Counted from the stretch's first letter, positions 1-9,174 are shown. The stretch is DNA of 64,000 bases from Gemmatimonadota bacterium (GCA_034521595.1 JAXHMG010000003.1:480001-544000), one strand, 5' to 3'. Numbers and translations are program-made. The notes: a model not told the origin generated them from the sequence alone.

Positions 1-682
1 CAACACGGTGCTCGCCCGGTGGCTCCGCACGCTCGGCGTCACGACGGTTAACCCGGCCATGGTCCTGGAGACCTGCGGCGACAAGGTGTCCACGACGTTG
101 GCGCTCCTCGACGCGGGAGTGCCGACCCTGTCCGCTTCCGTCGCCTTCACGGGTGCCGGGGGGCTGGAAGCCGCGGACGCGCTCGGCTATCCCCTGGTCG
201 TCAAGCCGGTGATCGGGTCCTGGGGCCGCCTGATCGGTAAGGTGAACGACCGGGACGCGCTGGAGACGGTGCTCGACCACAAGGATGCGCTGGGCGGGGC
301 GCCGCACGCGGTCACCTACCTCCAGCCCTACGTGGAGCTTCAGGGGCGCGACATCCGAGCGTTCGTGATCGGTGGGCGCTGTGTCGCGGCGATCCACCGG
401 AGCTCCCGGCACTGGAAGACGAACACCCACCTGGGAGCAGAGGCCTCCGCCATGGAGGTCGACGAAGCCTTGGCAGGCATCTCCGAAGCGGCCGCGGCCG
501 CCGTGGGCGGTGGCGCCGTCGCGATCGACCTGTTCGAAACGGACGACGGCTACGTGGTCAACGAAGTCAACGGATCGATGGAGTTTCGGAATTCGGTGGA
601 TACGACCGGAGTCGACATCCCCGGCCTCCTGGCCGAATATACGCTAGCCGTCGCCGCGACCGGCGGGGTGGAGGCCACGTGA
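1..682 (+). CDS. lysX: RimK/ATP-grasp family LysX/ArgX amino acid--LysW ligase (5' partial)
   Basis: ATP-grasp motifs CGDK, YPLVVKPVIGSWGRLI, YLQPYV, RDIRAFV, WKTNTHLG, VNEVN..MEFRN; stop overlaps next start (GTGA); frame open to window edge. Confidence 0.88.
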   Translation, partial: NTVLARWLRTLGVTTVNPAMVLETCGDKVSTTLALLDAGVPTLSASVAFTGAGGLEAADALGYPLVVKPVIGSWGRLIGKVNDRDALETVLDHKDALGGAPHAVTYLQPYVELQGRDIRAFVIGGRCVAAIHRSSRHWKTNTHLGAEASAMEVDEALAGISEAAAAAVGGGAVAIDLFETDDGYVVNEVNGSMEFRNSVDTTGVDIPGLLAEYTLAVAATGGVEAT

Positions 683-1752
683 CTCGCGTTTCCATCCTCG
701 GAGCGTCCGGATACGGGGGAGGCGAGCTCCTACGGATTCTGCTCGGCCACCCGCACGTCGAGATCGGTCAGGTCACGTCCAGGCGGCTCGCGGGGAAGCC
801 GGTGCACCGTGCGCATCCGAACCTCCGGGGTCACACCTCGCTCCGCTTCTCGTCTCCCGACGAGCTCGAGCCCTGCGATCTGCTCTTTCTCGCGCTCCCG
901 CACGGCGGAGCGTCGGCGCGGTGGGACGCGCTCGAGCCCCTTGCCGAGCGTTTCGTGGACATGAGCGCAGACTTCAGGCTCGACGATCCAGGGCTTTATG
1001 AGCGCTACTACGGGCCGCATCCACGCCCGGAGCTTCTGGGCACATTCGCCTATGGCTTGGCCGAAGCGAACCGGGAACAAATCCGGGGCGCCAGGCGCGT
1101 CGCGACCGGCGGGTGCAACGCCACCGTCTCGATCCTGGCCCTTCTGCCGTTGTACGAGGCGGGCGTAGTGCTGCCGGATCGGACGGTGGTCGATGTGAAG
1201 GTGGGCTCGAGTGAGGCCGGCGCCGACGCGAACGAAGGCTCGCACCATCCGGTCCGGAGTGGCGTCGTACGTCCGTACAGTCCCACCGGTCACCGCCACA
1301 CGGCCGAGGTCGAAGCCGTGCTGCGTGGTCTGTCCGACGGTGCCGGAGATCCCAGGGACGTCTCGCCCTCGGAGGCCCGGGTGCACCTGAGCGTGACCGC
1401 CATCGAAATGGTCCGTGGCGCTGCGGCGCTGGCGCACGTGTTTCTCCGAGAAGGCGTCTCACAGCGCGACATCTGGTCCATCTACCGGAAGCGGTACGCG
1501 GACGAGCCGTTCGTTCGAATCGTCTCCGAGCGACAGGGCGCCTACCGGCTCCCCGAGCCCAAGCTGCTGTCCGGGACGAATCACTGCGACATCGGTTTCG
1601 AGCTCGACGCGTCGGGAGAACGGTTGGTCGTGGCCGCGGCGATCGACAACCTCGTGAAGGGCTCGGCGGGGCAGGCGGTCCAGGCGATGAACCTGATGCT
1701 GGGCTGGGACGAGCGGGCGGGGCTCGGGTTCCCGGGCCTGCACCCCATCTAG
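679..1752 (+). CDS. lysY: LysY/ArgC-type LysW-acyl-phosphate reductase
   Basis: ILGASGYGGGELLR Rossmann motif, VATGGCNAT catalytic Cys, DNLVKGSAGQAVQAMNL. Confidence 0.88.
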   Translation: MTRVSILGASGYGGGELLRILLGHPHVEIGQVTSRRLAGKPVHRAHPNLRGHTSLRFSSPDELEPCDLLFLALPHGGASARWDALEPLAERFVDMSADFRLDDPGLYERYYGPHPRPELLGTFAYGLAEANREQIRGARRVATGGCNATVSILALLPLYEAGVVLPDRTVVDVKVGSSEAGADANEGSHHPVRSGVVRPYSPTGHRHTAEVEAVLRGLSDGAGDPRDVSPSEARVHLSVTAIEMVRGAAALAHVFLREGVSQRDIWSIYRKRYADEPFVRIVSERQGAYRLPEPKLLSGTNHCDIGFELDASGERLVVAAAIDNLVKGSAGQAVQAMNLMLGWDERAGLGFPGLHPI

Positions 1753-1777
1753 CTCGGGCAGCAAGGAGCGCTTGACG

Positions 1778-2461
1778 ATGTGTCGGTTCTTCGCCCTCCG
1801 GTCGGACGGGCCCGTCGATCCCGTGCCCTGGATCGCGTCGTTCGCCGAGCGCTGCAGGGTCAGCAAGGAGTACCAGGGTCATGGGTGGGGCGTGAGCTGG
1901 TGGGACGGTGAGGGCTGGCAGCGCCACCGCTCCGTCCGTCCCATCTGGGAGGAGGTGCCGGAGGAGCTTCCGAGCGCCACGATCGTGCTCGTGCATGCAC
2001 GGAGCGCGTTCCGTAACGAGGGCATCGTCGTGGAGAACAACATGCCGTTCGTGGCTGACGATATGGCCTTTGCGTTCAACGGCGAGCTCCGGGGAGTTCG
2101 CTTGAGCGTGCCGGGCGAGACCGGAGCTGCGAAGCTCTTCGAGCTTCTTCGGCGCTTCCGTGCGGCGGACGGGAATACGGAAGGAGCGCTCCGGAGGCTC
2201 GACCGGGTGGTCACCGCCCGCACGGAGTACGTCCGCGCGCTGAACACGGTGGTCAGTGACGGACGAGACGTGTGGGCAAGCAGCCGGTACTCGGAGGACC
2301 CGGAGTATTTTACGCTCTGGCAGGCATGGTTGCCGCTCCTGGCCGGCGGAACATCCGCGGTTTCGTCCGAGCCGTTGGACGTCGACGGGCAGCGGCCGGA
2401 ATGGGACCCCATGCCCCATGGAGAGATTCTGAAGATCGACCGGGAGACCACGTGCTCGTAG
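1778..2461 (+). CDS. Class II glutamine amidotransferase / Ntn hydrolase (EgtC/YafJ/Dug3-like)
   Basis: AAGGAG RBS at 1763-1768; ATG 1778 gives MCRFF (N-terminal Cys nucleophile); HGWG, LVHARSA, NNMPF, FAFNG motifs. Confidence 0.85.
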   Translation: MCRFFALRSDGPVDPVPWIASFAERCRVSKEYQGHGWGVSWWDGEGWQRHRSVRPIWEEVPEELPSATIVLVHARSAFRNEGIVVENNMPFVADDMAFAFNGELRGVRLSVPGETGAAKLFELLRRFRAADGNTEGALRRLDRVVTARTEYVRALNTVVSDGRDVWASSRYSEDPEYFTLWQAWLPLLAGGTSAVSSEPLDVDGQRPEWDPMPHGEILKIDRETTCS

Positions 2462-4470
2462 TCAAGATAGGGGGCGGCGATCTGGATCTGGGCGAGATCG
2501 CCGACGACCTCGCGGCGCTCGACGACCCGTTCGTGCTGATTCACGGAGCCAACAAGCTCCGGGACGAGCTCGCGCACGCCCTGGGGAGGCCGCCGAAGGT
2601 GGTCGAGTCGATCTCCGGATACACGAGCGTGCTCTCGGACGACGACGCCATCGACGTGCTGATGGCAGCCTACGCCGGCGTGCGCAACAAGCGCCTCGTG
2701 GAGGCCCTGCGTCGTGCCGGCGTCGATGCCGTCGGGTTGACCGGCCTCGACGGTGGACTGGTCGAAGGCGTCCGGAACAAGGGGATTCGGGTCAAGCAGG
2801 ACGGGCGCAAGCTCCTCCTTCGCGACAACTCCGGAAAGCCCCGATCCGTGAACGGAGATCTGCTACGCGACCTCCTGGCGCGAGGCCACGCACCCGTCAT
2901 CACGGTACCGATCGCGGGTGAGGACGGATCGGCCCTGAACACCGAGAACGACGAGGTCCTCGCGCTCTTGAGCGCCGAGCTCGGTGCGACCGACGTCGTC
3001 TCGCTCATCGAGGCGCCCGGGCTGCTGACCGACAAGGACGATCCGGAGTCCCTGGTGCAGCGGGTGGACGCGAACGAGCTGGAGGGGTGGGAGAAACGCG
3101 TCGAGGGGCGGATGCGTCGCAAGATTCGTGCGCTCAGGTCCCTTTTCGATCGCGCTGGAACACCCGGGCCACGGGTCCGGCTGAGTGATGGCCGAGTGTC
3201 GCGACCCGTATCTCGAGCGCTCGAAGGTGCCGGCACGCTCTTCGCGCGAAACGGAGCTTCGTCCGAGGAATCTCCGGCCGAGGCGTCGACCTCGAATCAC
3301 TGGCTCGAGCGGATGGCCGAGCACGAGCTCGATGTCTACGGGAAGCGAGGGTTGACCCTCGTCGGTGGTGAAGGAGCTCGGGTGACCGACGTGGAAGGAA
3401 GGTCTTACATCGACTGCATCGGGGGGCACGGAGCGTTGGCGCTCGGGCACAGGCATCCCGCGCAGGTCGCTGCGCTGCGCCGGGCGGCCGAGGGGCCGTG
3501 GTTCGTTCCCGGATCCTTCGGTAGCCCCCCGCGGGTGGCGTTCCTGGAAAGGCTGCACGAGATCCTGCCCGACGAGCTGGCCCGGACGTTCCTTTCGAAC
3601 TCCGGCACGGAAGCCGTGGAAGCCGCCCTCAAGATCGCCCGGGCCCATACGGGCCGCAGCGAGTTCGTGGCTGCGGTGCGGGGCTTCCACGGACGGACCT
3701 TCGGGGCGCTCTCCGTTACCTCGGAGGCGCACTTTCGTAAGCCGTTCGAGCCCCTGCTCGGCGACGTGCGGCGGGTCCGATTCAACGATGCAGCCGGCCT
3801 GGCCGAAGCCGTGAGCGACCGGGTGGCCGCGGTCGTTCTCGAGCCCGTTCAGGGAGAAGGGGGTGTGCACGTCGCCGAGCCTGCCTTCCTCCGCGCCGCG
3901 CGGGAGGCCTGTGATGCGCACGGCGCGCTGCTGATTTTCGACGAGGTACAGACCGGGTTCGGTCGGACCGGCACGCTCTTCGCCTTCGAGCGCTCGGGGG
4001 TGGTCCCCGACGTTCTGTGCCTGGCGAAGAGCATAGCCGGAGGACTCCCACTCGGTGCGACGGTCGTGCGCGAAGGTATCTCGCTGCCCGTGGGAACACA
4101 CGGCTCCACGTTCGGCGGGAATCCACTCGCCACGGCGGTGGCGAGCGCTACGCTCGATGTCTTGACCGCGCCGGAGGGCGAAGCGCTGCTCGCCGAGGCG
4201 GAGCCGAAGGGGCAGCGTCTGGCCGAACGCATCCGCGACGCCGACCTCGAGCAGGTACGTGAGGTCCGGCAAGTCGGCCTGATGGTCGGGATCCAGATGC
4301 GTCGGCGGTTGGGTGACCTGCTCGGTGACCTGCAGGAGCGCGGGGTCCTCGCCCTGTCCGCGGGGTCGAAGGTCGTGCGGCTCCTGCCGCCGCTCGTGAT
4401 CAGCGACGAAGAGGTCGAGCTGGTCGGGGACGCCCTGCTCGAGGTTTTGTCGGCCTCCGGGACGCGATAG
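2452..4470 (+). CDS. Fused LysZ/ArgB-type kinase + LysJ/ArgD-type class III PLP aminotransferase
   Basis: GTG 2452 after GGGAG; N-terminal VVKIGG, IHGA, GLTGLDGG, GRMRRKI; C-terminal YIDCIGGHG, FLSNSGTEAVEAALK, FHGRT, DEVQTGFGRTG, AKSIAGG, HGSTFGGNP. Confidence 0.88.
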   Translation: MLVVKIGGGDLDLGEIADDLAALDDPFVLIHGANKLRDELAHALGRPPKVVESISGYTSVLSDDDAIDVLMAAYAGVRNKRLVEALRRAGVDAVGLTGLDGGLVEGVRNKGIRVKQDGRKLLLRDNSGKPRSVNGDLLRDLLARGHAPVITVPIAGEDGSALNTENDEVLALLSAELGATDVVSLIEAPGLLTDKDDPESLVQRVDANELEGWEKRVEGRMRRKIRALRSLFDRAGTPGPRVRLSDGRVSRPVSRALEGAGTLFARNGASSEESPAEASTSNHWLERMAEHELDVYGKRGLTLVGGEGARVTDVEGRSYIDCIGGHGALALGHRHPAQVAALRRAAEGPWFVPGSFGSPPRVAFLERLHEILPDELARTFLSNSGTEAVEAALKIARAHTGRSEFVAAVRGFHGRTFGALSVTSEAHFRKPFEPLLGDVRRVRFNDAAGLAEAVSDRVAAVVLEPVQGEGGVHVAEPAFLRAAREACDAHGALLIFDEVQTGFGRTGTLFAFERSGVVPDVLCLAKSIAGGLPLGATVVREGISLPVGTHGSTFGGNPLATAVASATLDVLTAPEGEALLAEAEPKGQRLAERIRDADLEQVREVRQVGLMVGIQMRRRLGDLLGDLQERGVLALSAGSKVVRLLPPLVISDEEVELVGDALLEVLSASGTR

Positions 4471-4705
4471 GTCTCGCTGCGTCATTTCCTCTGATGCAAC
4501 GCTCCGGTGACTTCGGAGCGTCTACCACGGGCTGCTCAAGCTGCGTCGGCCACTCGTTGATCCGGCGAGCGCCGAACGGGATGGAGGCCGGTTGGTGGTG
4601 GTTCTGCGGGGTGAAACTTTCCGCGCTCGGAGCACGAAGGGTCAGACACGGAGGGGCGCAGGGGCTTCCCTCCCGAAACGAGAAGCAGGGACGAGGTCAA
4701 AGGAC

Positions 4706-4942
4706 ATGATCAACACGCATCTCAGGAAACGGAACGAGGTCCCATGGTGGGCGGTGATCGGTGCGCCGGTCGTGGGGGTTCCGTGCATCGTGGCGCTCCT
4801 GGCGCTGGCAGGTCCCGAGCAGGAGGCTGGCGGGGCGGACACGGAGGTGGACTTCGCAGTGGAGCAGCTCGACGTCGAGCCGGCGGAGGCGCGGCTCGAG
4901 GCCCGGAGCATCGGTCCGATCCGGTTGGTCGCGAGCTGCTGA
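4706..4942 (+). CDS. Small single-TM hypothetical protein
   Basis: ATG after purine-rich GAGG..AAGGAC; basic N-terminus, hydrophobic WWAVIGAPVVGVPCIVALLALA, acidic tail. Confidence 0.5.
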   Translation: MINTHLRKRNEVPWWAVIGAPVVGVPCIVALLALAGPEQEAGGADTEVDFAVEQLDVEPAEARLEARSIGPIRLVASC

Positions 4943-4966
4943 AGCATCCGATCGGATCGACCGTCT

Positions 4967-6043
4967 TTACCCGAACAGCTCCATCTGGGCCGGGCCGGAC
5001 TCCGCGGGTCGACGGAACGCCGCGGCGGAGAGCGGCGGCGCGTTCTCCAAGGCCAACCGCCGGCGCTGGACCCGGAAGACCGAGCGTAAATGTTCGGCCC
5101 ACGGTCCTTCCCCACGCCCTCGGACACCGAACCGTGCGTCGTAGAGAGCTCCGCCCCTGAGCTCTCGGATCCGATTCAGCACCTTTTCCGCCCGCTCGGG
5201 CGCGTGCTGCCTCAACCATCCCTCGAACATCTCCTTTACGCCGTGTGGCAGCCGGAGCAGGATCATCCCGGCGAACGAAGCACCAGCGTCGGCCGCGGCC
5301 TGGAGGATGGCCGGGATCTCGTGGTCGGTGAGTCCCGGAATGACCGGTGCGACGTTCACGCCCACGGGTATGCCCGCGTCGGCCAGCACTTGGATGGCAC
5401 CGAGGCGCCGGGCCGGGGTCGAAGCACGGGGCTCCAGCTTGCCCTGCAGCTTGCGGTTCAGGGTCGTGACCGAGATGAAGACGGCGGCTGCATCGTGTCG
5501 TGCCAGGTCGGCCAGGAGGTCGACGTCCCGGCTCACGAGGTAGCTCTTCGTGGTTATGCCCACCGGATTCCGAAACTCGGATAGGATCTCGAGGCAGCGG
5601 CGCGTGACCCTCAGGCGGCGCTCCACCGGCTGATACGCGTCGGTATTTCCGCTGAGAGCGATCGTGCGCGGCGTCCACTTGGGTGATGCGAGGGCGTCTC
5701 GCAACAGATCCGGAGCTTCCGGCTTCACGAGGATGCGGGTTTCGAAATCCAGTCCCGCGGAGAAGCCCAGGTACTCGTGCGTGGGCCGGGCGTAGCAGTA
5801 GGCGCAGGCGTGCTCACACCCTCGGTACGGATTGATCCCGACATCGAAACCCACGTCGGGCGAGTCGTTGAACGACAGGATGGAACGACTCGCGTCCCTG
5901 AGGAGGACGGTGTCGGGAGGCGGGTCGTCTGTATCCGTCCACCGCTCACGCTCGACGTGGAGGCGGTCGTAACGGTTCGGTGGATTCCAGGCGACGCCCC
6001 GACCACGGAGCGTGGGCAGCGGAAGGTTTAGTGGCGAGTCCAT
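4967..6043 (-). CDS. Radical SAM protein, PA0069/spore-photoproduct-lyase-like family
   Basis: INPYRGCEHACAYCYAR (CxxxCxxC), SGNTDAYQPVERR, VAPVIPGL, C-terminal QMELF. Confidence 0.9.
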   Translation of the reverse strand: MDSPLNLPLPTLRGRGVAWNPPNRYDRLHVERERWTDTDDPPPDTVLLRDASRSILSFNDSPDVGFDVGINPYRGCEHACAYCYARPTHEYLGFSAGLDFETRILVKPEAPDLLRDALASPKWTPRTIALSGNTDAYQPVERRLRVTRRCLEILSEFRNPVGITTKSYLVSRDVDLLADLARHDAAAVFISVTTLNRKLQGKLEPRASTPARRLGAIQVLADAGIPVGVNVAPVIPGLTDHEIPAILQAAADAGASFAGMILLRLPHGVKEMFEGWLRQHAPERAEKVLNRIRELRGGALYDARFGVRGRGEGPWAEHLRSVFRVQRRRLALENAPPLSAAAFRRPAESGPAQMELFG

Positions 6044-6250
6044 GGAAGACAATGATACCGAATAAAGACCGAATATCAAGCGGTGGGACGCGACACGCGG
6101 ATGCACGAACGCCCCGGCGGGCTCAAGCGCTCGCCGAGGCGTTCGTGGAGTTGGGCTTCCCCCTGATCGCGGCCCCTGGAGAAAGGGCGCCGCGAACGGG
6201 TTGACGACCGTCGGAGCGCGCTCCGACGGTCGTGTTCGCGCGTCCGTGCG

Positions 6251-6813: not shown

Positions 6814-9174
6814 TCAGAAGGAGAAGGAGACCCCTACGAGGGGCAGCAGCGGTCGTTCCGCCAGCGGAGTCACCGCTTCGTCCCGCCACGGCTCGAAGGT
6901 ATAGAACATCGCGTCCCGCTGATCGAGCGCGTTCAAGATCCGGACGTACGGTCGGATGTGCCAAGATCGGCCGCCCCAGGTCGTTTCGAGCGAAGCGTGT
7001 AGCTCCAGGTCCAATCGGAGGAATTCTTCGTCGAGTCCACGCACCACGGGGTCGACGGGGGCCGTTCGGCTCGCGGTAGCGACGGGTTCCGCGGAGGCGA
7101 ACCCGGGGGCGGAGTCCTGGCGCGTCGGAACCGGGATGCTGGTGTACGGAAGGCCGGCTCCGTAGGAGATCCGGGCTTCCCCGGCGATCGGTCCGGCGAG
7201 GCGACCGGAAAGGCCGGCGGTCAGCAGGTGTCGCCCGGAGAAATCGGCGGTTCGTCCCGCCAGGTCGGTGCCCGACCAAAACCAGGAGAGCCCGTAGCCG
7301 AGCCACCCGGATGCGTGCTCTCCCGCGCTGAGAATGCGAACGTCCACGCCGGAGCTCCGCACGGTCTCCCGTTCCGGGCGATGCAACCCTTCGAAGCGCT
7401 TGAAGAACCCTTCGAGCCCGAGCTTCGCCGAGTTCCCGATGCGCTGATCGAGTGAGAGGACGACGTGGTCGGCCGTGGCGACCGGAAGCACCTCGTCCGC
7501 TTCGATGCCGTCGTCCGTCATCTCGACCAACGTGTGCTCGACGGCGGGATCCACGGTGCGTGTCGGCTGGTGGTAGCGTCCCGCCGCGACCGTGACGAGC
7601 GCGTCGGGCCCGATCTCCCAAAAGAACGAGGCTCGTGGGGCCGCGCGGAATCCGACATCGGGAAAGTAGTCGGCCCGGAGGCCGGCACGCAGAGTGACCC
7701 CTGCCGCGAGCCGACGCGTTCCTTCGAAGAAGGCCCCGGTGCTCTCGGCGTGACCTCGATTCTCACTGGTGTGGTGACCGGGCGAAGTGACCGCCTGAAA
7801 GGCTGCGGCGATCCGCTCGTGGGAGGTGCCGACGCGCATCTCCGCGTCCGGGGCGCCCCACGTCAGCTCTCCCACGGCCCGGAGCCGCTCGGTTCCTCCG
7901 GATGCGACGAAGGAGGTGGGTGACGGCTCCTCGGGCGTCGGGGTCCCTCGGAGCGGAAGCTCGGCCTCGTATCCGCTCGCGCCCAGGGACAGGTCGAGGC
8001 GCGCGCCCCCCAGATCCGCTCCGTACGACAGGGTGGCCGCGCGGTTCGACCAACGGGCATCGTCGGAGACGCGGGCATGGTCGAGAAGAACCTCCTCGGA
8101 GTTGAGAAAGCCCGTGACTCCGAGCTCGTGTCCGGGCGCGACTTCTCCGTCGACCGCGACGAGCAGGTCTCGGTATCCGTACGGTCGTGCTCCGCCCAGC
8201 GCCCGCCTTCCCAGGTCGTGGAGGCTACGCCCGGAAGCCAGGATCCCGGCATGGTCACCCAGGGGGGATTCGACCGCCGCGGAGGTCGTGAGGAGATCCA
8301 CGGTTCCGGAAGCGCGCAGGCGGTCCCTGCGGGCCGTCCGGGTCCGGAGGTCGAGGATGTGCGTGAGGCCGCCGTCGTAGCGGGCGGGGGCGCCACCTAC
8401 GTGTAACTCGGCCGTGCCCAGGACCGCGGGCTCGAAGCTGCGCATGAGACCCGCGACGTGGAATGGCGTATACACCGGGACCCCATCCAGGAGGACGAGC
8501 TTGAGGTCCGTGGTCGAGCCTCTCATGAAGAGGATGTCGCTCGCGTCGGCCGGGTCGTTTCCGGGCAGCGAGCGGACGGCGTCGAGCAGGCCCTGACGTC
8601 CCACCCCCGGCGCCAAGTCGAGGGCCTGCATGTCGAGCTCGGCCAGACCGGTCGAGGGTGTGCGTGGAGTGGCGCGCGAGGGATCCGGCACTTCGGGACG
8701 GTTCCGGGAACTCCGGACGTCCACTGCGTCGAGGGCGATCGGCTTGGCGGACAGCTCCAAGTCGACATCCACGGTGCCGCCCGCCGGAACCGTGACCAGG
8801 AGTTCGACGGGGGCGTGGCCCGGGTGGAAGGCCCGGAGCACGACCGGTCCCGCGGGGAGGCGCTCGAGGCGGTAGTGTCCATCCCTGTCGGCAGGGGTCG
8901 TGCGGGTGACTCCGTCCGCCGACGCCTGTACGGTGGCGAAGCCGAGAACCCTCGTGCCTCCCTGGAATCGACCTTCGACCTGGCCTCGGATCACGCCACT
9001 GGGTGAATCTTCGGGAACCTGCCCGAACGACGATCCCGGGGACGTACCGACGAGCGCTGCGGTGCCGAGCAGCACGGCTGAGGCACGGACGCACCTCAGC
9101 GCGCCGCCCCGCGGAAGGGTTCCCGCACCCTTACGGCGTCGTGAACAAGATCCGAGCATCGGTCCGCTCTCCAA
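6814..9174 (-). CDS. TonB-dependent receptor with N-terminal carboxypeptidase-regulatory-like domain
   Basis: Signal-like segment, IRGQV..GHYRLERLPAG domain, plug motif MRGSTTDLKLVLLDGVPVY..FH, C-terminal VSFSF; start uncertain. Confidence 0.85.
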   Translation of the reverse strand: MESGPMLGSCSRRRKGAGTLPRGGALRCVRASAVLLGTAALVGTSPGSSFGQVPEDSPSGVIRGQVEGRFQGGTRVLGFATVQASADGVTRTTPADRDGHYRLERLPAGPVVLRAFHPGHAPVELLVTVPAGGTVDVDLELSAKPIALDAVDVRSSRNRPEVPDPSRATPRTPSTGLAELDMQALDLAPGVGRQGLLDAVRSLPGNDPADASDILFMRGSTTDLKLVLLDGVPVYTPFHVAGLMRSFEPAVLGTAELHVGGAPARYDGGLTHILDLRTRTARRDRLRASGTVDLLTTSAAVESPLGDHAGILASGRSLHDLGRRALGGARPYGYRDLLVAVDGEVAPGHELGVTGFLNSEEVLLDHARVSDDARWSNRAATLSYGADLGGARLDLSLGASGYEAELPLRGTPTPEEPSPTSFVASGGTERLRAVGELTWGAPDAEMRVGTSHERIAAAFQAVTSPGHHTSENRGHAESTGAFFEGTRRLAAGVTLRAGLRADYFPDVGFRAAPRASFFWEIGPDALVTVAAGRYHQPTRTVDPAVEHTLVEMTDDGIEADEVLPVATADHVVLSLDQRIGNSAKLGLEGFFKRFEGLHRPERETVRSSGVDVRILSAGEHASGWLGYGLSWFWSGTDLAGRTADFSGRHLLTAGLSGRLAGPIAGEARISYGAGLPYTSIPVPTRQDSAPGFASAEPVATASRTAPVDPVVRGLDEEFLRLDLELHASLETTWGGRSWHIRPYVRILNALDQRDAMFYTFEPWRDEAVTPLAERPLLPLVGVSFSF

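Follow-up and report, generated by a model that had tools for sequence, protein, structure and literature searches.

Release of the finished amino acid from the carrier protein LysW is so far known for the metal enzyme LysK only. LysK is an M20 metallopeptidase of the ArgE/DapE family (TIGR01902, NF003367) and takes lysine or ornithine off the gamma-carboxyl of the C-terminal glutamate of LysW. It is still treated as the hydrolase in a 2025 paper on the LysW pathway (PMC12998189). Here, we describe a gene for an N-terminal nucleophile (Ntn) protein in a LysW operon of a Gemmatimonadota bacterium (genome G000, 93.25% complete). The window, i.e. the whole stretch of DNA analysed, has a length of 64,000 nucleotides (G000:C3:480001-544000), and the Ntn gene lies at 1778..2461 on the plus strand. 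We consider it quite probable that the encoded hydrolase replaces LysK. Judging by gene content and modelling, it is predicted to hydrolyse the [LysW]-gamma-glutamyl amide, releasing lysine and/or ornithine, and to deamidate LysW ending in glutamine (Gln) where such a carrier is encoded.

The proposed reaction of the Ntn protein is the same as that of LysK, and both are encoded in the same type of gene cluster. Fold and chemistry are unrelated: LysK is a metal-dependent M20 enzyme, whereas the Ntn protein has a cysteine nucleophile.

The closest solved fold is EgtC, the gamma-glutamyl amidohydrolase of the ergothioneine pathway (4zfj, 4zfk and 4zfl). Both proteins are stand-alone class-II domains of ~230 amino acids with an N-terminal cysteine nucleophile. 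Both cleave a gamma-glutamyl amide (proposed in the case of the Ntn protein) and do not feed ammonia to a synthase. The differences are in sequence (20–22% identity) and in the genomic setting. The Ntn gene is flanked by lysW, lysX, lysY and lysZ-lysJ and not by egtA/B/D/E (egt genes were looked for in the flanks only). Moreover, the proposed substrate of the Ntn protein is the C-terminal residue of a protein, the alpha-amino group of which is part of a peptide bond.

The Ntn protein shares the fold, the N-terminal Cys, the Arg for the alpha-carboxylate and the Asn-Gly oxyanion hole with the GlmS and PurF glutaminase domains and with the uncharacterised stand-alone proteins 3mdn and 1te5. It differs from them in having no synthase domain, in a T-G-A in place of the T-D-S/T-E motif and in the location of its gene within an operon for carrier-bound amino acids. 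ArgJ (ornithine acetyltransferase) is comparable by analogy only. It is also an Ntn-type enzyme, and it closes the homologous arginine pathway by stripping an N-protecting group via an acyl-enzyme. However, ArgJ has another fold and a Thr nucleophile, is autoproteolytic and passes the acetyl group on to glutamate.

In a full-text literature search, in which subscription journals were largely outside the coverage, a connection of LysW with an Ntn or class-II amidotransferase enzyme did not come up in any paper. 'LysW' and 'Ntn' occurred together in one paper, where LysW appears only among listed ATP-grasp enzymes.

Operon layout and conservation of the Ntn gene

Together with the upstream contig, the gene order of the operon is lysW-lysX-lysY-Ntn-lysZJ. 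lysW is located directly upstream of the window (G000:C3:479583-479765) and directly before lysX. It is an open reading frame (ORF) of 60 amino acids with two CxxC pairs and the C-terminal end EDWGE, in keeping with the small zinc-ribbon carrier of LysW clusters. The start of lysX is upstream of the window as well (G000:C3:479768), and its 3' part of 226 codons covers positions 2..682 (plus strand). The LysX protein of the whole gene reached 276.2 bits with TIGR02144 (cut-off: 275.6), and the partial protein within the window reached 254.7 bits. The gene of the lysY/argC-type reductase follows at 679..1752 (plus strand; TIGR01850 with 364.1 bits, PF01118 and PF22698).

The Ntn gene runs from ATG to TAG and encodes 227 amino acids with a Met-Cys start. 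A Shine-Dalgarno sequence (AAGGAG) can be read at 1763..1768 on the same strand, 9 nt before the ATG. The next gene is a fusion of lysZ (kinase) and lysJ (aminotransferase) at 2452..4470 (plus strand), in which PF00696 and PF00202 are found within one open frame. The top NCBIfam match of the fusion protein was LysJ NF042418, with 396.9 bits below the cut-off of 700. The start of the fusion is either GTG at 2452 or ATG at 2401, giving an overlap with the Ntn gene of 10 nt or 61 nt, respectively. The original prediction had placed the Ntn gene between lysY/argC and the lysZ-lysJ fusion, overlapping the latter, and ORF, Pfam and NCBIfam matches and start sites agree with this. It had also stated that the visible operon, ending at 4470, contains no M20 peptidase. 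This was confirmed: none of the 13 Peptidase_M20 matches of the genome lies inside the window. The inspection of the upstream contig, which it had proposed, added lysW and the start of lysX, and the operon is without LysK.

For the conservation analysis, one genome per species was scanned. Relatives of the Ntn protein were encoded in 447 stretches, and the best 80 loci were analysed. At least one neighbour from the LysW pathway was present in all 80 loci; conservation of the gene in LysW operons was thus seen throughout the best homologue loci. lysY was found directly upstream of the Ntn gene in 71 of the 80 loci, was cut off by a contig end in two and was not adjacent in seven. The loci with non-adjacent lysY were L031, L033, L041, L046, L053, L061 and L078, where the cluster is split and lysZ-lysJ is kept downstream. 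lysZ was found directly downstream in 77 loci, with two cut by a contig end and one non-adjacent. In L094, ~2 kb is inserted between the Ntn gene and lysZ. An M20 gene as a conserved neighbour of the Ntn gene was not found in the 80 loci. The loci come from Gemmatimonadota, Acidobacteriota, Calditrichota, Ignavibacteria/Melioribacteraceae, several Gammaproteobacteria, Planctomycetota, Caldisericaceae and archaea.

Mutual exclusion of the Ntn gene and LysK

The best match to TIGR01902 in G000, at the completeness given above, was 80.1 bits and far from the cut-off of 163.1, i.e. no LysK was detected in this genome. For comparison, the true LysK of G088, a genome of the same phylum, reached 409.5 bits with NF003367. 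Two ArgE/DapE-like M20 proteins are encoded elsewhere in G000; they scored best as YgeY-like (below the cut-off) and as generic ArgE/DapE. Based on these scores, a LysK hidden elsewhere in G000 was rejected at the family level. The result was the same for 50 whole genomes with an Ntn gene, none of which had a TIGR01902 match above the cut-off (best: 111.1 bits). The three best sub-threshold matches had higher scores as generic ArgE/DapE or DapE.

In three phylum samples, the presence of LysX, of the Ntn family and of LysK was recorded. In the 151 genomes of the phylum of G000, 11 had LysX above the cut-off. Nine of these carried the Ntn gene and no LysK, and two (G088 and G142) carried LysK and had no Ntn match. 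In the phylum of G032 (201 genomes), 23 genomes were LysX-positive (22 above the cut-off and one cut by a contig end), with the Ntn gene in 14 and LysK in nine. No genome had both, and none had neither. The third sample was the archaeal small-genome phylum of G046 (201 genomes), with LysX above the cut-off in seven genomes. All seven had the Ntn gene adjoining lysX and none had LysK; in two of the seven, there were no M20 candidates whatsoever. An eighth genome of this phylum, with a weak LysX-like match (171 bits), had neither the Ntn gene nor LysK.

Pooled, the 41 LysX-positive genomes were divided into 30 with the Ntn gene only and 11 with LysK only, with none having both or neither. The anti-correlation with lysK that had been suggested for this gene was therefore complete in these genomes. 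Control genomes with LysX (Thermus, Deinococcus, Haloferax and Sulfolobus) all had LysK above the cut-off (4 of 4). In the opposite direction, 80 metagenome loci were fetched with the LysK profile, and an Ntn match was found in none of them.

The position of the genes is also exchanged. LysK-type clusters have the order lysW-X-Y-Z-J-K, with lysY abutting lysZ (G088, G206, G382 and six more). In G243, G262 and G342, a divergent Ntn gene (28–34% identity to that of the window) is located after lysJ, which is the place of lysK in LysK-type clusters.

C-terminal residue of LysW

The C-terminal end of LysW was readable in 61 of the 80 Ntn loci and was EDWGE in 36 and EDWGQ in 25 of them. Inclusion of the three divergent loci, of G000 and of seven more genomes brought the Ntn-type clusters to 46 EDWGE and 26 EDWGQ ends (n=72). 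In contrast, all 31 readable LysW of LysK-type clusters (11 genomes and 20 metagenome loci) ended in EDWGE, and none ended in Gln. The difference in Gln ends between Ntn-type and LysK-type clusters had a Fisher p value of 3e-5, uncorrected for relatedness. Glu and Gln ends alternate among close relatives, e.g. between L042 and L043 in Melioribacteraceae and between L055/L059 and L056 in Thermoanaerobaculales.

LysX needs a gamma-carboxylate, and hence a LysW that ends in Gln must be deamidated first. Class-II amidotransferase domains carry out such a deamidation as their family chemistry, and the bond is of the same type as in LysW-gamma-Lys. The distribution of the Gln tails in these sequences fits an enzyme that hydrolyses gamma-amides of the terminal LysW residue. 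Deamidation by the Ntn enzyme would also explain why carriers with a Gln end occur only beside it.

Fold and conserved residues of the Ntn protein

The sole Pfam match of the Ntn protein was PF13230 (GATase_4) with an E value of 5.3e-10 and 39.1 bits (gathering cut-off: 23); a Peptidase_M20 domain was absent. The AlphaFold2 model had a predicted local distance difference test (pLDDT) value of 91.0 and a predicted template modelling (pTM) score of 0.89. The top Foldseek matches of this model were the EgtC structures 4zfl, 4zfj and 4zfk (E value of ~2e-12, template modelling (TM) score of 0.73–0.77). They were followed by 1te5, the GlmS glutaminase domain, 3mdn and PurF, and all of the listed folds had a probability of 1.00, in agreement with the four-layer Ntn fold of the solved members. 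The likeness to EgtC claimed in the original prediction hence holds for the fold. It does not hold for membership in the EgtC family: EgtC (TIGR03442) was the top NCBIfam match, but its 54.3 bits are far below the cut-off of 218.65.

The Cys2 at the N-terminal nucleophile position was kept in 19 of 20 aligned sequences, the exception being a sequence with a shortened N-terminus. Invariant across all 20 were H73-A-R75-S-A-F78, N101-G102, G113, G116 and A117. In an alignment with the GlmS of G000 itself (MAFFT --add), R75 was aligned with the Arg of H-T-R-W-A and N101-G102 with H-N-G. In a paper on PurF, Arg73 is described as holding the alpha-carboxylate and Gly102 as being in contact with the carbonyl (PMC7953260).

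G116 was aligned with the Asp of S-D-T-D-T-E in the GlmS of G000 (MAFFT --add; low identity), and G-x-T-G-A was placed on G-S-T-D-S-E of 3mdn in a PDB profile alignment, again at low identity. This Gly is thus an Asp in the other class-II enzymes aligned (3mdn and GlmS); the corresponding residue of EgtC was not aligned. In class-II enzymes, this Asp is the binding partner of glutamine's free alpha-amino group. Its replacement by an invariant Gly fits a substrate in which the alpha-amino group is part of a peptide bond.

A further cysteine near the C-terminus, C226 (window positions 2450-2458 for residues 225–227), was also invariant in 20 of 20 aligned sequences. The pLDDT of this tail is <50, and the residue is outside the predicted LysW interface described in the following subsection.

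Predicted complex of the Ntn protein and LysW

For the Ntn protein paired with LysW, the predicted complex passed with a score of 0.64 (0.64, 0.66 and 0.61 in the single runs), and the best of three controls had 0.02. Of 80 solved complexes, 58 came up to the same mark, as did 2 of 110 mismatched pairs. At least 74% of the contacts were in common between the runs, and the pLDDT of the partner was at least 76. The predicted interface comprises residues 1–2, 75–78, 89, 100–108, 110, 115–117, 119–120 and 150 of the Ntn protein and residues 36 and 53–60 of LysW. In the model, the EDWGE tail is placed in the catalytic pocket (Cys2/Arg75/Asn101-Gly102), with Trp58 and Gly59 against residues 115–117. 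The model supports binding of the LysW tail in the active site of the Ntn protein.

Proposed reaction and alternative explanations

In the proposed reaction, the initiator Met would be removed, and Cys2 would attack the gamma-carbonyl of the C-terminal glutamyl residue of LysW, which bears the finished amino acid as a gamma-amide. Lysine (and/or ornithine) would depart as the amine. The resulting LysW-gamma-thioester would then be hydrolysed, returning LysW-Glu to LysX. Arg75 may hold the free alpha-carboxylate of the terminal LysW residue, and Asn101-Gly102 may form the oxyanion hole. Gly116, in place of the class-II Asp, would leave room for the preceding LysW chain (Trp-Gly). Acting on an unsubstituted amide, the enzyme would use the same chemistry to deamidate a LysW whose gene specifies a C-terminal Gln. 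That the Ntn protein performs the release step, as originally predicted, is supported by synteny, the exclusion of LysK, the Gln tails and the complex model, i.e. by evidence from sequences and models.

Several points weigh against this explanation. The genomes behind the co-occurrence counts are related, and the counts are without phylogenetic correction. In the search of the phylum of G000, only 19 first-look candidates were scored per genome, so that G088 or G142 might have an Ntn gene away from the cluster that escaped the search. Some of the counts include an unpublished genome (G028, locus L060); without it, 0 of 49 Ntn genomes have LysK, and 13 of 22 LysX-positive genomes in the phylum of G032 have the Ntn gene. 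The complex model was built from our own alignments, which makes its calibration only rough. The placement of Gly116 comes from MAFFT --add and the 3mdn profile alignment only, as hmmsearch and hhalign against GlmS gave nothing usable. The residue roles were assigned from alignments with ~20% identity and from the roles in PurF and GlmS, with those of Arg73 and Gly102 taken from a paper (PMC7953260). Finally, generic M20 proteins of the ArgE/DapE family are present in G000 and in most other Ntn genomes, and one of them could in principle hydrolyse LysW conjugates.

The evidence for an action on the terminal gamma-amide of LysW would be the same if the Ntn enzyme were a transferase. A new alpha-aminoadipate or glutamate would then resolve the LysW-gamma-thioester on Cys2 with its alpha-amino group. 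LysW would be handed over from the product to the next substrate molecule, ATP-free like the acetyl recycling by ArgJ, and Gln-ended LysW would be loaded likewise. Ntn thioester acyl-enzymes can be resolved by amines, as in gamma-glutamyltranspeptidase and ArgJ, which counts for a transferase, as does the lack of ArgJ in G000. However, 66 of the 80 loci were found to have lysX. Those without it are mostly cut by a contig end or split, and clusters with a Gln-tailed LysW keep it. Retention of lysX is expected if every cycle needs ATP-dependent reloading. In addition, there was no pointer to an acceptor site, and the closest structure, EgtC, is a hydrolase. Taken together, a transferase appears quite unlikely. 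In one form of this explanation, LysX would serve for priming only, and LysW with a Gln end would be a genetically encoded, pre-activated carrier. This would amount to an ArgJ-like ATP-free cycle for a protein carrier, which we regard as unlikely.

The Ntn enzyme might also only mature or proofread the carrier, by deamidating Gln-ended LysW or by stripping misloaded amino acids, with lysine or ornithine released by a generic M20 enzyme of the ArgE/DapE type encoded elsewhere. The restriction of Gln-ended LysW to clusters with an Ntn gene agrees with this, and generic M20 proteins were present in 43 of the 50 Ntn genomes at E≤1e-10 and in G000. The other seven of the 50 genomes had no LysK-like M20 match at this threshold, and the two archaeal genomes mentioned above had no candidates. 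Furthermore, 46 of the 72 Ntn-type clusters, including that of G000, encode a LysW with a Glu end, which needs no maturation. Maturation alone also leaves the strict exclusion of LysK and the occupation of its slot unexplained. This makes a role restricted to maturation very unlikely.

That the Ntn enzyme is a true glutaminase subunit, which hydrolyses free glutamine and supplies a partner enzyme from the cluster with ammonia, is suggested by the names (PF13230 is 'glutamine amidotransferase class II', and relatives of the Ntn protein are called 'glutamine amidotransferase' in the sources) but is highly improbable, as the 80 loci contain neither a synthase domain nor a conserved extra partner gene, the LysW pathway requires no ammonia, the Ntn family has an invariant Gly instead of the Asp for glutamine's free alpha-amino group, and the exclusion of LysK and the Gln tails would be left unexplained.

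If the Ntn enzyme is indeed the hydrolase that replaces LysK, this would be a clear non-orthologous displacement of LysK by an unrelated cysteine hydrolase. An apparent gap of the pathway would be closed in hundreds of species from at least seven phyla, including archaea with small genomes, and a function would be given to a large family whose present annotation is just 'glutamine amidotransferase'. Metabolic reconstructions in which such organisms are scored as lysine or arginine auxotrophs would be corrected. It would also mean that the 'essential' C-terminal Glu of LysW can be encoded as Gln, and that the C-terminal residue of a protein is a new type of substrate for class-II amidotransferase domains.

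Lysine, ornithine or both as the product of the cluster

Specificity signatures have been described for LysX in the 2025 paper, in which F-I-T-NS marks the LysX type, I-Y-V-GF the ArgX type and Y-I-T-NA the bifunctional type (PMC12998189). The LysW cluster of Thermococcus is given as bifunctional for lysine and ornithine in the same source (PMC12998189).

The LysX of G000 reads F-I-T-NS (alpha-aminoadipate/lysine type), which points to lysine; its alignment to the LysX of T. thermophilus (1uc8/3vpd) was gap-free. F-I-T-NS was found in 71 of 75 LysX from Ntn-type clusters; among the loci with a homocitrate synthase in the cluster, there was a single exception. Such a homocitrate-synthase gene (PF00682 and HCS_D2) was located between lysW and lysX in 17 of the 80 loci. 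Other features of G000 point to ornithine and arginine: ArgJ, a second ArgC and a canonical ArgB are missing, and argF and argH are present. lysY is the only ArgC-type gene of the genome. dapA and lysA were found above the cut-offs. A single gene similar to homocitrate/isopropylmalate synthases (415 amino acids, G000 C3:2512088-2513335) had no model above the cut-off, and there were only two genes of the Iso_dh family. Ornithine as the only product was dropped. A bifunctional cluster for lysine and ornithine is possible.

In two Melioribacteraceae loci, a second, distant set of argC/argB/argD-like genes (24–33% identity) is located right after the LysW cluster, which contains a homocitrate synthase (L042:9069-12623 and L043:8884-12586). 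This suggests separate lysine and arginine routes side by side in these two loci.

Further features of the locus and neighbouring genes

The fusion of lysZ and lysJ was seen in 8 of 74 related loci with both genes, all among the closest relatives. The two genes are joined in one frame, although the steps of their products in the pathway are not consecutive. The first gene past the end of the operon at 4470 is a radical S-adenosylmethionine (SAM) gene at 4967-6106 (minus strand), convergent with the operon. Beyond it, there is an ORF of 786 amino acids at 6814-9174 (minus strand). A scan of 4300-5100 for terminator-like and promoter-like sites found none. Long antisense frames were present opposite lysY and the Ntn gene, e.g. 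at 974-2419 (minus strand, 481 amino acids). They are typical of DNA with 68% G+C and are unsupported as genes.

Just upstream of the LysW cluster, a glutamate-5-kinase-like gene (AA_kinase and PUA) and a gene of the aldehyde-dehydrogenase family (ProA-like) are located at G000:C3:476121-478741 (plus strand; L210:2121-4741). Between them and lysW lies a gene of 213 amino acids on the minus strand (G000:C3:478749-479390, i.e. L210:4749-5390), which is divergent from lysW and had weak matches to DUF7523 and an ACT domain. This gene was rejected as a substitute for LysK because it had no match to a catalytic family and its homologues adjoin no more than 35 of the 80 Ntn-type loci. The LysK-type loci examined, the flanks of which are uneven, showed no homologue. 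The DUF7523/ACT-like gene may encode an amino-acid-sensing regulator specific to Ntn-type clusters.

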